Source: an uncultured Gammaproteobacteria bacterium (GTDB lineage: Bacteria; Patescibacteriota; Patescibacteriia; UBA1558; 2-01-FULL-52-15). From it: a stretch of 64,000 nt of DNA. The stretch's first letter is position 1. Every line of letters starts with the position of its first letter. A model generated the notes under the pieces. It did not search any database and had not been told where the DNA came from. It was given only the letters and a program-made list of their open reading frames with translations. A program made the translations under genes and the position numbers. This document shows positions 26,016 through 37,420 of this stretch, piece after piece. The DNA lies in contig CAZIOU010000002.1 of NCBI GenBank assembly GCA_964540995.1, positions 43,750 to 107,749 of the forward strand. The letters are read 5' to 3'.

Positions 26016-26297
26016 TTATAGAGCAAAAATCTTGGAGTCTTCGATAGCAATACCTTTAGCCTGCAATTCGCGTACCAGATTATGAACTGCTCTGTCGGTA
26101 CCCAGATAGTCCAATAATCCATGTTTAACTTTAGACATATCGTCGTTTAAAGATTGCAACTGTTCCTCAACCCCTTGAAAGCGTTTATTAACACGAGACT
26201 CAAAGCCATCGATACGATCGTTAATCGTAGCGCTGAACCGGGTCAGGGCGCTATCTAAAATAGTAGTTAGATCCTTTTTTGTGACGTATTCAGACAT
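26016..26297 (-). CDS. Small hypothetical coiled-coil protein
   Basis: 93-aa ORF with a heptad-like pattern. Confidence 0.4.
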   Translation of the reverse strand: MSEYVTKKDLTTILDSALTRFSATINDRIDGFESRVNKRFQGVEEQLQSLNDDMSKVKHGLLDYLGTDRAVHNLVRELQAKGIAIEDSKIFAL

Positions 26298-26531: not shown

Positions 26532-27122
26532 GTGCCCCGATCTCACCCGCTTTTTGGTCGCAGAGATTTCACGGCCCGTGTCGACGCGAATCCCGTGATC
26601 TTCAAAGTTCGACGCCCAAGAACCCTTTCTCGATCAAAGAAAGCTAAAGGGAAAAAGACTCAGAAACTGCTAAGAATCCCGACAAGGTTCTGCTGTGATT
26701 CGGTCTCCGCTGTCATGCAGGCTCTTGATCTATTGGGGTTCCAGAATAATTGGATCACCCTGACTCAAGCAGGAGGTCGGCTGGTCTTGGCCTATCAGGG
26801 CTGGCTACCGTGGTTACCACCTAAGGCTCCGCTCCTCCTACCCTTCAAGGCGAGCGACCCTGAACCCGAAAAGAGGTTAGCCGAATTACTTGAACGTCTC
26901 TTCAAGCCCTTTGAGCTTCAAGGCTCAATGCGCTACCGCTCTCGTTATGAAGTGACAAGGGATATGGAGACTGCTGACCGGGATATGGATATTAGCCTCC
27001 TGGTTATTCTCAATGCGGCTCTATTCTGTGCTCCGGATATGCTTGAAGCGCTCACAAAGACTCTGACTGAGCTCGATAATATACCCATGCATGTTCAAGC
27101 CTCTGCCTTCGAGCCCGGATAA
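26532..27122 (+). CDS. Hypothetical protein, GC-rich relative to its neighbours (likely horizontally acquired)
   Basis: 196 codons open in a segment that looks about 55% GC by eye. GTG start 5 nt after GAGGAGG. Contains WLPWLPP. No motif recognised. Confidence 0.5.
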   Translation: MPRSHPLFGRRDFTARVDANPVIFKVRRPRTLSRSKKAKGKKTQKLLRIPTRFCCDSVSAVMQALDLLGFQNNWITLTQAGGRLVLAYQGWLPWLPPKAPLLLPFKASDPEPEKRLAELLERLFKPFELQGSMRYRSRYEVTRDMETADRDMDISLLVILNAALFCAPDMLEALTKTLTELDNIPMHVQASAFEPG

Positions 27123-27160
27123 TTGACCATCGCTTCTTTTCCGGCACTATATAAGCCCCT

Positions 27161-27191
27161 AACAAACATTTTGTTAGGGGCTTATTATTTT
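27161..27191. terminator. Long perfect hairpin (14-bp stem) between convergent genes
   Basis: aagcccctaacaaa-cat-tttgttaggggctt followed by tattatttt. A second imperfect hairpin abuts the leuS stop. Confidence 0.6.
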
Positions 27192-27231: not shown

Positions 27232-30138
27232 TTAGACGACAATATTTACGATCTTACCTGAAACGTAGATAAATTTCTTCGGCTGGTTGCCAACTAGGTG
27301 TTTCTGTACCACAGGTAGCGACAGAACGATTGGTTTCAGATCAGCTTCCGTAATATCAGACGCTACTTCCACCTGCCCGCGCACCTTACCGTTAATCTGA
27401 ACTGGTAACGCTATTTTGTCCGCACGCAAAAGTGCTGGATCATATGTCGGCCAGCTCTGAAGATGAATAGAGTCTTGGTGGCCCAACTTCTCTCGCCATA
27501 GCTCCTCCGTCATATGTGGCGCCAATGGTGCTAACAAGAGCAGAAATGTTTCCAATACAGAACGCTCGACAATTTTCTGCTCCGTAACAGCATTAAATAA
27601 AATCATCAATCCGCTAACAATAGTATTGTAAGAACGACGAGCGATATCATCATCCACTTTTTTAATCGTTTGATGGAGTAGGTTATGAATACTTGATTGC
27701 TTGCTATCAGAAATTGCTGCTGATTGATAATAGTCCCAGATACGTTTCAAGAAGCGATACACTCCCTGCACACTACCATCATTCCAGATCTTAGTACCAT
27801 CATATTCTCCCATGAACATTTCATACAAACGCAAAGTGTCAGCACCATATTTCTCCACGATAGCATCAGGATTGATGACGTTACCTCTGGATTTGGACAT
27901 CTTCTGACTATCAGGGCCCAGGATCATGCCATGAGAAATACGTCGAGCGTAGGGCTCGGCAGTAGGGACTAACCCCTGATCGAAGAGGAACTTGTGCCAG
28001 AAACGTGAGTAAAGAAGATGCAATGTCGTGTGCTCCATTCCTCCATTATAGAGATCTACCGGTAACCAATAATCCAGTTTTTTCTTGTCAGCTAACACTT
28101 GATCATTCAATGGGTCAGTGAAGCGCAAGAAATACCACGACGAACCAGCCCAATTGGGCATAGTATCGGTCTCACGCTTAGCAGCGGCACCACATTTGGG
28201 ACATTTCACATTTACCCAATCTGTAATAGCTGCCAAAGGTGACTCGCCGGTATCAGTAGGCTCATAGTGCTCTATGTCCGGTAATTCCAATGGCAGATCT
28301 TTGTCATCTAGTGGCACATAGCCGCAGTGCTCACAGATAATGACCGGTATCGGCTCACCCCAATAATGTTGGCGTGAAAAAATCCAATCACGCAACTTGT
28401 AATGCGTAGTTATCTTGCCTTGTTTCTTGGCTACCAGTGCATCAGCGATGGCTTGCCAGGCCTTGGTATCAGGCAAACCATCAAATTCATGTGAACTCAT
28501 CATCACTCCTTCTCCGGTATAGGCTGTTCCGCCGCTGATATACTGCTGCCAGATGAACAGTCCATCAACGATGTTCAATTTCTTGGGCACTTCATCGGCT
28601 GTCACCCACAGCGGGCTGTGTTTGGCTGTCTCCTCATCGGTTAACTCACGACGTTGATCGTTAACCAAGTCAAAAACCACAACACTTATATCGGCATAAC
28701 GGTTTTCATCTTTATGACCAGCATAATACTCTGACTGAATCATCAAAGGTAACTGCTGAACAAAGGCAATATTCTCATAACCAGTTTCTTCCAGTACCTC
28801 TCGCTTGGCTGCTTCGATCAGATCTTCTCCGGGATCAACACCTCCAATGACGAAAGAGTATAACTGCGGCCGCTGGGGCGTCAGGTTCACTTTCCAATCT
28901 AATAACATTATCTTCTGATCGCTCGGACGACGCAGAATTATATGAACATTATGGCGACGAACCGATTTCTTACCTGGAATCGGCCGGCTTACAGGTTCCT
29001 CGAAATGTGGCGCAATCACTTGTTTAATCGGCAATTCATATTTGTGGGCAAACTCCCAATCTCGCTCATCATGCGCTGGTACCGCCATGATAGCGCCAGT
29101 GCCATAACTCATCATGACATAATCCGCCACGAAAATAGGTAACTCTTCTTGGGTAAAAGGGTGAAGCGCTTTGATGCCTTTCAATTCCACACCGGTTTTC
29201 TCTTTCTTCTCCTGGCGCTCTCGATCGGTTAATTTTTTGCTCGCTGTCACATAGGCTTCCACCTCAGAGTAATTCTTCACTTTCAACTGGTAACTTTCAA
29301 TTAACGGGTGCTCCGGTGCAATGACGAGAAATGTAGCGCCGAAAATAGTGTCGGGACGAGTGGTGAAGACACGAAGAGTGGTACTTGGTACTGGCGACTG
29401 GGTACTCGGATCCCCGATAGCGGATCCTGCGATCTTAAACTCAATCTCCACTCCCTTACTCCGCCCAATCCAATCAATCTGCTGCTTCTTGATGTGGGGT
29501 AGGAAATTGACCGTTTCTAGATCATCGACCAGACGATCAGCGTACTTAGTAATTTTCAAAATCCATTGGTTAATATCACGTAATTCCACTTCAGTACCGC
29601 AGCGTTCACATTTACCATCGACAACTTCTTCGAACGCCAAGCCAATCTTATCTTTGGGACACCAATTAATCTTGGTTAATTTCTTTTCTGCTAGACCAGC
29701 CTTATAGAGTTGTAAGAATATCCACTGTGTCCATTTATAATATTTCGGGTCAGTTGTATTAACTTCTCGACTCCAGTCAAAAGAGATGCCAAGCGATTTG
29801 ATCTGGCGTTTGAAATTGGCAATATTTTTCTCTACTGCTTGTCGAGGATGTATCTTATTTTTGATAGCATAATTCTCCGCCGGCAAACCAAAAGCATCCC
29901 ATCCCATCGGATACAGCACGTTATTACCCTTCATGCGCAGGTAACGCGCTAAGACATCTTGAGCGGTATAGGACAGACAGTGACCGACATGCAGACCATC
30001 ACCAGAAGGATAAGGAAACTCCACTAAAATATACTGCTTGGGCTTAGCAGAAAAATCTTCAGCTCGATACAAATGCTGCTGATCCCAGTACTGTTGCCAC
30101 TTGGGCTCAAATTCTGATGGTTGGTACTCATTAGTCAT
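27232..30138 (-). CDS. leuS: Leucyl-tRNA synthetase with an inserted Nudix-hydrolase domain
   Basis: HIGH motif PYPSGDGLHVGH; KMSKS motif KMSKSRGN; CP1/editing-region motif AHDERDWEFAHKYELPI. See the Nudix insertion feature. Confidence 0.9.
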   Translation of the reverse strand: MTNEYQPSEFEPKWQQYWDQQHLYRAEDFSAKPKQYILVEFPYPSGDGLHVGHCLSYTAQDVLARYLRMKGNNVLYPMGWDAFGLPAENYAIKNKIHPRQAVEKNIANFKRQIKSLGISFDWSREVNTTDPKYYKWTQWIFLQLYKAGLAEKKLTKINWCPKDKIGLAFEEVVDGKCERCGTEVELRDINQWILKITKYADRLVDDLETVNFLPHIKKQQIDWIGRSKGVEIEFKIAGSAIGDPSTQSPVPSTTLRVFTTRPDTIFGATFLVIAPEHPLIESYQLKVKNYSEVEAYVTASKKLTDRERQEKKEKTGVELKGIKALHPFTQEELPIFVADYVMMSYGTGAIMAVPAHDERDWEFAHKYELPIKQVIAPHFEEPVSRPIPGKKSVRRHNVHIILRRPSDQKIMLLDWKVNLTPQRPQLYSFVIGGVDPGEDLIEAAKREVLEETGYENIAFVQQLPLMIQSEYYAGHKDENRYADISVVVFDLVNDQRRELTDEETAKHSPLWVTADEVPKKLNIVDGLFIWQQYISGGTAYTGEGVMMSSHEFDGLPDTKAWQAIADALVAKKQGKITTHYKLRDWIFSRQHYWGEPIPVIICEHCGYVPLDDKDLPLELPDIEHYEPTDTGESPLAAITDWVNVKCPKCGAAAKRETDTMPNWAGSSWYFLRFTDPLNDQVLADKKKLDYWLPVDLYNGGMEHTTLHLLYSRFWHKFLFDQGLVPTAEPYARRISHGMILGPDSQKMSKSRGNVINPDAIVEKYGADTLRLYEMFMGEYDGTKIWNDGSVQGVYRFLKRIWDYYQSAAISDSKQSSIHNLLHQTIKKVDDDIARRSYNTIVSGLMILFNAVTEQKIVERSVLETFLLLLAPLAPHMTEELWREKLGHQDSIHLQSWPTYDPALLRADKIALPVQINGKVRGQVEVASDITEADLKPIVLSLPVVQKHLVGNQPKKFIYVSGKIVNIVV
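28534..28986 (-). other. Nudix hydrolase domain inserted in LeuS (about aa 385-535)
   Basis: The perfect Nudix box GGVDPGEDLIEAAKREVLEETGY (Gx5Ex7REUxEExGU) lies between the editing-domain motif AHDERDWEF...ELPI and the YKLRDWIFSRQHYWGEPIP block. In E. coli LeuS these two blocks are about 40 aa apart. Confidence 0.7.
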
Positions 30139-37344: not shown

Positions 37345-37420
37345 TGGTGGGCCTGGGTGGAATCGAACCACCTACTTCGATCTTATAAGGATCGCACTCT
37401 AACCGATGAGTTACAGGCCC
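37345..37420 (-). tRNA. tRNA-Ile with anticodon UAU (reads AUA); CCA encoded
   Basis: The reverse complement GGGCCTGTAACTCATCGGTTAGAGTGCGATCCTTATAAGATCGAAGTAGGTGGTTCGATTCCACCCAGGCCCACCA folds as a full cloverleaf: 7-bp acceptor stem, D stem ACTC/GAGT, anticodon stem CGATC/GATCG with loop CTTATAA, and a GGTGG-TTCGATT-CCACC T-arm. It is very similar to tRNA-Ile(GAU), including discriminator A73. Coordinates are accurate to about 2 nt. Confidence 0.85.

Follow-up and report, generated by a model that had tools for sequence, protein, structure and literature searches.

A Nudix hydrolase module carried in the CP1 editing domain of a bacterial leucyl-tRNA synthetase and its relatives in the candidate phyla radiation

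Aminoacyl-tRNA synthetases make diadenosine tetraphosphate (Ap4A) from aminoacyl-adenylate and ATP, and dedicated hydrolases for synthetase by-products are known from the axis of lysyl-tRNA synthetase (LysRS), Ap4A and NUDT2 in animals and from the hydrolysis of aminoacyl-adenylates by HINT. Within the Ile/Leu/Val group of class I synthetases, an extra enzyme domain has a precedent in the isoleucyl-tRNA synthetase (IleRS) with an embedded N-acetyltransferase, for which NCBIfam holds an 'exception' model (NF040702, ileS_w_GNAT). The subject of this report is leuS, the gene for leucyl-tRNA synthetase (LeuRS), in a stretch of 64,000 nucleotides (referred to below as the window) on contig CAZIOU010000002.1 from an uncultured bacterium of the Patescibacteriota, together with the Nudix hydrolase module embedded in the editing domain of its product. 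The NCBIfam matches of the window protein, among which a model for LeuRS with Nudix would have ranked first, included none, and a 2017 survey of the Nudix clan (PMC5389931) makes no mention of tRNA or of a synthetase. The first-pass annotation of the window had known of no description of the insertion for LeuRS, and full-text literature searches likewise found no paper on it, which is no proof of absence. Public databases that offer precomputed Pfam matches contain the Nudix-LeuRS architecture in abundance.

The gene encodes a complete bacterial-type LeuRS with its synthetic and editing motifs intact. The minus-strand open reading frame (ORF) is unbroken over 968 aa and its product matched TIGR00396 (leuS_bact) at 984.7 bits against a cut-off of 548.4, which identifies the protein as a bacterial-type LeuRS. 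The Pfam domains found besides NUDIX were tRNA-synt_1, tRNA-synt_1_2, Anticodon_1 and the editing domain PF13603 (E=5.9e-59). In an alignment of 98 LeuRS homologues the editing residues T260, R261, D263, T264, H356, D357, R359 and D360 were invariant, as were the HIGH and KMSKS motifs of the synthetic site. Because the editing motifs are invariant in these sequences, a proofreading role in which the module replaces editing is unlikely. The full-length AlphaFold2 (AF2) model, built from the 98-sequence alignment, had a predicted local distance difference test score (pLDDT) of 91.1 and a predicted template modelling score (pTM) of 0.81. Foldseek matched it to LeuRS structures from Escherichia coli, Thermus thermophilus and Neisseria gonorrhoeae (E=1e-82 to 5e-79, TMt 0.77-0.84), and the best TMq, 0.73, was obtained with the E. 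coli aminoacylation complex 4AQ7. A segment matching T. thermophilus residues 580-637, which we take to be the leucine-specific domain, is missing from the window LeuRS in the region of residues 742-746 (alignment with 1h3n). By eye, this segment is also absent from P0015, a relative from the candidate phyla radiation (CPR).

A Nudix module of approximately 150 to 165 residues is carried on a surface loop of the connective polypeptide 1 (CP1) editing domain. A phmmer comparison with T. thermophilus LeuRS (1h3n) aligned residues 4-387 of the window protein with residues 3-373, and residues 539-742 with residues 376-580, so that about 151 residues (388-538) stand where the T. thermophilus enzyme has two. 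This is in agreement with the roughly 150 extra residues first reported for the 968-aa protein, and the coordinates then given, 28534-28986, correspond to residues 385-535. The module follows the conserved AHDERD editing motif at a distance of 16 residues, and the C-terminal boundary of the insert reads ...YISGGT / AYTGEG. The PF13603 match breaks off at profile position 146 of 185 and residues 539-580 are the normal end of CP1, which places the insert inside the editing domain. The first-pass annotation had located the extra residues between the CP1 editing motif and a conserved block beyond it; the stated point was confirmed, with the correction that the ~40 residues ahead of YKLRDW (539-580) still belong to CP1, and the insertion does not lie between CP1 and the catalytic core. 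The coordinates of all features are listed in Table 1.

The perfect Nudix box recognised at the outset, GGVDPGEDLIEAAKREVLEETGY (residues 432-454), is an exact match to GX5EX7REUXEEXGU, no second such box occurs in any of the six frames of the window, and the surrounding region scored 53.7 bits with PF00293. The AF2 model of the module on its own (residues 376-545, 41-sequence alignment) reached a pLDDT of 95.0 and a pTM of 0.89 and displayed the Nudix order of strands and helices, and in the full-length model the module and both junctions score approximately 90 or above. Foldseek searches of the PDB with the module gave 539 matches at E<=0.001, with a probability of 1.0 for hundreds of Nudix structures, and all 50 of the 50 listed were Nudix enzymes. 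The top matches listed were an Enterococcus faecalis MutT/Nudix protein, NudI, T. thermophilus ADP-ribose pyrophosphatase, RppH and Aquifex Ap4A hydrolase (TM 0.5-0.78), and human Ap4A hydrolase was also among the matches. As predicted by these models, the module certainly adopts a Nudix fold as an independent domain, in line with the initial proposal, while the predicted structure leaves its Nudix subfamily unplaced.

Table 1 Features of the leuS locus in the window (residue numbers refer to the 968-aa LeuRS)
Feature	Coordinates	Strand	Evidence
leuS coding sequence, LeuRS hosting the insert	27232..30138	-	ORF, TIGR00396, Pfam, AF2 model, Foldseek
HIGH motif HVGH, residues 50-53, synthetic site	29980..29991	-	Translation; H50, G52, H53 invariant
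KMSKS motif, residues 746-750, synthetic site	27889..27903	-	Translation; K746, S748, K749 invariant
CP1 editing domain before the insert, residues 222-381	28996..29475	-	PF13603 profile positions 2-146 of 185
TTRPDT editing motif, residues 259-264	29347-29364	-	Translation
AHDERD editing motif, residues 355-360	29059-29076	-	Translation
CP1 editing domain after the insert, residues 539-580, running into YKLRDWIFSRQ	28399..28524	-	Aligns with T. thermophilus LeuRS from 376 onward
Inserted segment relative to T. thermophilus LeuRS, residues 388-538, 151 aa	28525..28977	-	phmmer to 1h3n and translation
Nudix module as fold unit, residues 376-540, including N-terminal strand PHFEE and linker	28519..29013	-	AF2, Foldseek, stand-alone proteins
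Pfam NUDIX PF00293 match, residues 394-523	28570..28959	-	E=2.7e-14, 53.7 bits against gathering score 21.1
Nudix box GGVDPGEDLIEAAKREVLEETGY, residues 432-454, metal-binding catalytic helix	28777..28845	-	Exact GX5EX7REUXEEXGU match
Family signature YYAGHKDENR, residues 471-480; aromatic pair in specificity ('X') loop, +17/+18 after box	28699..28728	-	Conservation, 271 copies
R395, opening the first Nudix strand	28954..28956	-	265/271 copies; aligns with YRRNVG start of lupin Ap4A hydrolase
Perfect 16-bp hairpin, 47 bases past the leuS stop, between convergent ORFs, T-runs on both sides	27151..27185	.	Terminator scan, both strands read

Trivial explanations of the insert were considered and set aside. 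A chance motif is ruled out by the Pfam E-value of 2.7e-14 and the high-confidence Nudix fold. An assembly chimera is ruled out by the occurrence of the same protein on many independent contigs, by the more than 100 homologues with the insert and by the unbroken frame; the window protein clusters with three near-identical proteins on more than 10 contigs (NCBI, ENA, Logan). An intein would be expected to leave other marks, but there was no Hint or intein Pfam match and no His-Asn followed by a Cys, Ser or Thr nucleophile at the C-terminal boundary. The chance that any of these three accounts for the insert is virtually nil. A phage or defence origin was also considered and dropped, as no family-specific link emerged from viral contigs (generic Nudix-box matches and no family member), from the PADLOC defence models (no match for the module or for two stand-alone members) or from PHROGs (generic Nudix families only).

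For the analysis of conservation 285 domain copies were collected from 258 proteins, and the 271 near-full-length copies were scored. Within the box, G432 and G433 were conserved in 98 % of copies, E438 in 85 %, R446 in 86 %, E447 in 99 %, E450 in 97 %, E451 in 100 %, G453 in 98 % and Y454 in 90 %. Positions specific to the family were R395 (98 %), K476 (98 %), N479 (96 %) and R480 (93 %), further conserved family positions were E503, H507 and W511 (the last at 97 %), and positions 471 and 472 were each F or Y in 93 to 96 % of copies. Approximately 15 % of copies are of a variant designated type 2, with the box GGxExGQTxEExAxxE, in which E438 is replaced by Q and R446 by A or M. The module is acidic, with a median pI of 5.6 and a net charge of -4. 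Catalytic and family positions are equally tightly kept and under purifying selection, as one would expect if the enzyme is active and its substrate defined. It is very probable, judging from the sequences, that the anatomy described above and the prediction of an active accessory hydrolase both hold.

The Nudix-LeuRS arrangement is common to hundreds of CPR/Patescibacteria bacteria. When the insert was searched exhaustively with HMMER against 1.84 billion representative proteins, only 346 relatives were recovered at E<=0.001; a word-index search with the insert alone gave no match, which reflects a limit of sensitivity, given the 346 relatives later found with HMMER. Over 100 LeuRS homologues carry the insert. 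This Nudix family was present in 109 of the 120 best LeuRS homologues, and in 108 of them at the same site as in the window (site B). The named carriers among these were Komeilibacteria, Magasanikbacteria, Nomurabacteria, Moraniibacteriota, Paceibacterota and Minisyncoccota, to which a scan of species-representative genomes added Saccharibacteria, Berkelbacteria and Parcubacteria. That scan, made with a six-sequence alignment, was flooded by the generic Nudix-box pattern, and about 25 of its 80 loci were true family members. A few carriers are labelled as other phyla, two of them lying on contigs 2.6-3 kb long and a third on one of ~11 kb, and these small contigs make mis-binning likely. Outside the insert the window LeuRS shares 75 % identity with the Nudix-bearing P0002, 62-72 % with eleven LeuRSs that have no Nudix module, and on average 57.6 % with the 108 site-B carriers, P0002 included. 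Most of its closest LeuRS relatives thus lack the module. Such patchy presence among close LeuRSs implies that the module was gained, lost or exchanged within lineages and that LeuRS does not need it; we infer that it is an accessory needed by neither aminoacylation nor editing. Many Nudix-LeuRSs are named 'class I tRNA ligase family protein' by NCBI, and not leucine--tRNA ligase (P0002, P0011, P0041, P0062, P0074, P0077, P0087, P0088 and P0109). This generic naming could make CPR genomes seem to be without LeuRS, and it may affect how complete the genomes of CPR organisms are judged to be and how their metabolism is reconstructed.

The module occurs at more than one site and also outside LeuRS. 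Site B, after AHDxRD, holds 196 copies; site A lies right behind the WIGRS strand that opens CP1, and site 0 consists of tandem pairs ahead of that strand. Two or three modules were found in P0023, P0121, P0123, P0124 and P0017 (three in P0023, P0121 and P0123), and in these the middle or site-A copy is of type 2, with E changed to Q and the R shifted by one. Type 2 copies were also seen as the sole module at site B, and P0246, P0249 and P0261 are stand-alone proteins of this type. Between the first site-0 copies and site-B copies from other LeuRSs the identity is 67-73 %, considerably more than the 29-58 % that other site-B modules share with the one in the window, which indicates that the module moved between sites and did not diverge in place. 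In CPR genomes the module is also encoded as a separate protein of about 165 aa. Around 20 stand-alone proteins of 143-200 aa carry the same N-terminal extension (P0139, P0144 and P0166 begin with a PHFEE-type extension), and for 17 of the 19 that were scored the nearest neighbour was a LeuRS-embedded copy. The genes next to the stand-alone copies, which code for a haloacid dehalogenase (HAD) hydrolase, a low-molecular-weight (LMW) phosphatase, a glycosyltransferase and others, were uninformative.

Examination of the 149 best library matches (150 were listed, one of them previously in the set) identified 117 as LeuRS by the sequence outside the Nudix domain and approximately 20 as stand-alone. 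Nine other proteins were too long for plain stand-alone members; three of these are LeuRS editing-domain fragments, and a Pfam scan found no non-Nudix, non-synthetase domain in any of the nine. One further match, P0180 (643 aa, contig L081 2906-4837), is an archaeal-type class II prolyl-tRNA synthetase (ProRS) carrying the same Nudix subfamily. Its Nudix domain sits between the anticodon-binding and C-terminal domains, scores 151 bits with the family profile and has every signature residue. Four further clusters (P0273-P0276) have the same ProRS-Nudix architecture, and the nearest insert-free ProRSs are named Nanoarchaeota and Woesearchaeota, which are DPANN archaea. The subfamily was also seen at the C-terminus of P0214 (467 aa), which has a second, Nudt16-like Nudix domain, and of P0257 and P0258 (~290 aa), whose N-terminal region of ~140 aa has no Pfam match and whose Nudix domain is the closest relative of the ProRS copy. 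Aminoacyl-tRNA synthetases were the only recognisable non-Nudix proteins to which this subfamily was found fused, which speaks for a functional tie, and, as far as the sequences indicate, the module belongs to a mobile, synthetase-associated accessory subfamily that is lineage-wide in CPR.

Other guests, inserted in frame, occupy loops flanking or inside CP1 in LeuRSs close to that of the window, namely Ham1 (P0004), the serine hydrolase PF06821 (P0005, P0017) and the endonuclease-like DUF559 (P0065). The serine hydrolase of P0017 is at a third site, after YWGEPIP, so that PF06821 is found at two different sites. Some LeuRSs combine Ham1 or another guest domain with Nudix, and P0022 is also among the LeuRSs with extra guest domains. 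This variety of guest enzymes marks the CP1 loops as permissive carriers. P0003 and P0006, among the closest LeuRS relatives of the window protein and without Nudix, have an in-frame insert of ~130 aa (KEVVESTPHQLNFRDEKIWKKLISGEKTVETRALN...) after YWGEPIPM..C.HC, which had no Pfam match and resembles an ASCH/PUA-like domain by eye only.

Comparison with known Nudix groups gave clues to the substrate. When the family profile was searched against solved structures, lupin Ap4A hydrolase 1F3Y ranked first (E=3.4e-9) over profile positions 22-90 only, the half that holds the box. Next was AvrM14 (E ~1e-7), described as an mRNA-decapping enzyme (10.1101/2023.11.14.566975); no other protein of solved structure aligned along the entire module, K..(N/Q)R segment included. 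RppH/NudH (PRK00714 models) was the best curated NCBI family for all 41 members scanned, at ~28 bits against a cut-off of 116; the score of the window module was 28.5 bits and its match was limited to residues 47-89 of the 170-aa module, so that the module falls short of RppH membership. In sequence the module resembles the RppH/NudH-Ap4A hydrolase group without being a member of it. MutT models matched only 9-12 of the 41 members, and NudI and the uncharacterised MutT/Nudix protein 2azw were among the top structural and sequence neighbours. Specificity in Nudix enzymes is set by the X-loop approximately 17 residues past the box, which has Tyr in ApnA hydrolases, Pro in ADP-ribose pyrophosphatases and the motif SQPWPFPxS in NADH pyrophosphatases (PMC5389931, summarising Dunn 1999). 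In the window protein this loop has Y471 and Y472 at +17 and +18, and among the 271 copies F and Y occur 170 and 91 times at the one position and 136 and 116 times at the other. An ADP-ribose pyrophosphatase was rejected because the X-loop has no Pro, the residues at +15 and +16 being S/A/N and E/K/H with Pro never in the majority, and an NADH pyrophosphatase because SQPWPFPxS is absent from residues 455-540.

The explanation we favour is that the module is an active, Mg-dependent hydrolase that would form a third catalytic site tethered to LeuRS. Dinucleoside polyphosphates arise when a nucleotide, in place of tRNA, attacks the aminoacyl-adenylate on the enzyme, and the module would hydrolyse those containing adenine (Ap4A, Ap3A and relatives), so that clearance would take place near the source and scale with the amount of synthetase. 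The nearest relatives, the aromatic X-loop, the acidity and the restriction to synthetases are the reasons for preferring clearance of by-products, an acidic domain fitting a small-molecule substrate better than an RNA-binding surface. Clearance of dinucleoside polyphosphates, or of related adenylate-derived by-products of the synthetase, remains the leading hypothesis from the sequence comparisons, and we put its probability at about 0.4; the first-pass annotation had suggested a coupling of Ap4A synthesis to removal. Several points weigh against it. Ap4A hydrolase is matched chiefly around the box (profile positions 22-90), the RppH score of ~28 bits is far from the cut-off of 116, the sole whole-domain match of known structure was described as an mRNA-decapping enzyme, and the X-loop residue is F more often than Y. 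LeuRS is not known as one of the strongest producers of Ap4A. The stand-alone copies and the close relatives without the insert imply that tethering is not required for function, and the unrelated hydrolases in neighbouring loops (Ham1, serine hydrolase and DUF559) fit a permissive CP1 carrier with no chemical coupling.

A rival reading takes the module as a passenger, a house-cleaning pyrophosphatase that would hydrolyse damaged or non-canonical (deoxy)nucleoside triphosphates, as MutT and NudI do, with no chemical tie to aminoacylation. It would sit in LeuRS only because insertions are tolerated in the surface loops of CP1 and because, in a very small genome, an essential gene is sure to be expressed. 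CPR and DPANN organisms rely on scavenged nucleotides, and several observations agree with such a role: related LeuRSs carry Ham1 (of the ITP/XTP pyrophosphatase family), the serine hydrolase or DUF559, some of them Ham1 together with Nudix; NudI and 2azw are top neighbours; presence is patchy among close relatives; and stand-alone copies exist, one of them beside HAD and LMW phosphatase genes. A passenger should nevertheless have many kinds of host, whereas 117 of the 149 best matches are LeuRS and one is ProRS; independent entry at three LeuRS sites and into a class II synthetase is hard to explain by tolerance alone, and the MutT models match few members. We regard the passenger explanation as unlikely, although a serious contender. 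An enzyme acting on tRNA or RNA ends is likewise unlikely, slightly more so than the passenger. Held near the acceptor arm by the editing domain, it would strip a pyrophosphate-containing group (a 5' triphosphate, a nicotinamide adenine dinucleotide (NAD) or Np4N cap, or a toxin-added 3'-terminal pyrophosphate) and so condition or repair tRNA before charging. RppH is the closest curated family for every member scanned and RppH structures are among the best fold matches, AvrM14 is described as a decapping Nudix enzyme, both hosts bind tRNA, and the three LeuRS sites are all in CP1, which receives the acceptor end, or at its hinge. The RppH scores are, however, far under the cut-off and confined to the box region, and the acidity of the domain (pI 5.6, charge -4) is unlike a typical RNA-binding surface. 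Such a function would moreover concern all tRNAs and not just tRNA-Leu or tRNA-Pro, the ProRS module is not at an editing site, and the stand-alone copies work without a tRNA-binding host.

A nucleotide sensor or structural domain, which would bind Ap4A, ppGpp or ADP-ribose without turnover and modulate LeuRS activity or editing, or stabilise CP1, is very improbable. The copies with altered box (type 2), often beside a canonical copy in multi-Nudix LeuRSs, would suit it, as would the linkers, whose high-confidence prediction suggests a fixed orientation on CP1, and non-enzymatic Nudix precedents such as the regulator AraR, which was among the sequence matches. Against it, the window copy has all catalytic residues, E447, E450 and E451 are 97-100 % conserved, as expected for catalysis, and close relatives manage without the module. 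A broader proposal is that the Nudix subfamily is a dedicated synthetase partner, wired repeatedly and independently into LeuRS in CPR and ProRS in DPANN-like archaea, two unrelated lineages of ultra-small episymbionts, and processing something the synthetase makes or holds; its third active site would then act on a dinucleoside polyphosphate, an adenylate-derived by-product or the pyrophosphate-bearing end of bound tRNA. This we hold to be possible rather than likely.

If the module is active and coupled to the synthetase, the enzyme would possess a third catalytic centre, for which no precedent was found in LeuRS. It would offer a handle on whether dinucleoside polyphosphates made by synthetases are signals or waste, as the disposal enzyme may be tied to the source. 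The recurrence in a class II ProRS from another domain of life with the same lifestyle suggests selection tied to extreme genome reduction and nucleotide scavenging. The capacity of CP1 loops to accept whole enzymes at three or more positions is of interest for protein engineering.

The surroundings of leuS point to no functional link with the Nudix-LeuRS, its neighbours coding for a major facilitator superfamily (MFS) transporter, Sua5/TsaC, a LysM-M23 peptidase and a methyltransferase. The hairpin at 27151-27185 is likely to be a two-way terminator between leuS and ORF 26532-27122, and with this terminator downstream leuS is probably transcribed alone. No Rfam family was found in the 1.25 kb downstream of leuS. 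ORF 26532-27122 (+) would code for 196 aa from a GTG start, has no Pfam match and has a G+C content of 0.50-0.53, compared with 0.36-0.44 in the flanking intergenic DNA; ORF 26016-26297 (-), of 93 aa, is likewise without a Pfam match. The sole tRNA gene in the 64 kb window is a tRNA-Ile with anticodon UAU at 37345-37420 (-).

The window LeuRS has in common with the solved bacterial LeuRSs (E. coli 4AQ7/4ARC, T. thermophilus 1H3N/2BYT, N. gonorrhoeae 7NU3) the TIGR00396 match, the synthetic-site motifs HIGH and KMSKS, the editing motifs (threonine-rich and Asp), the anticodon-binding domain and the C-terminal domain, and its fold superposes on theirs (TMt ~0.8). It differs from them in the addition of the Nudix domain of ~151 residues in CP1 and in having no equivalent of T. 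thermophilus residues 580-637. Compared with the NF040702 IleRS, both the host and the inserted enzyme are different. The module shares with RppH/NudH and the plant-type Ap4A hydrolase 1F3Y the Nudix box, the fold and the R-x-x-V start of the first strand, but it has a signature of its own ([FY][FY]xxHKxxNR, E503, H507, W511), is acidic and not basic, and is embedded in a synthetase. With AvrM14, the flax rust effector (8DP8/8DP9), it aligns over the whole module, a weak likeness, and AvrM14 is a secreted, eukaryotic, stand-alone protein. The LysRS-Ap4A-NUDT2 axis and HINT would follow the same logic as that proposed here, a by-product nucleotide being cleared by a dedicated hydrolase, which in those systems is a separate protein and in the Nudix-LeuRS is covalently inserted.

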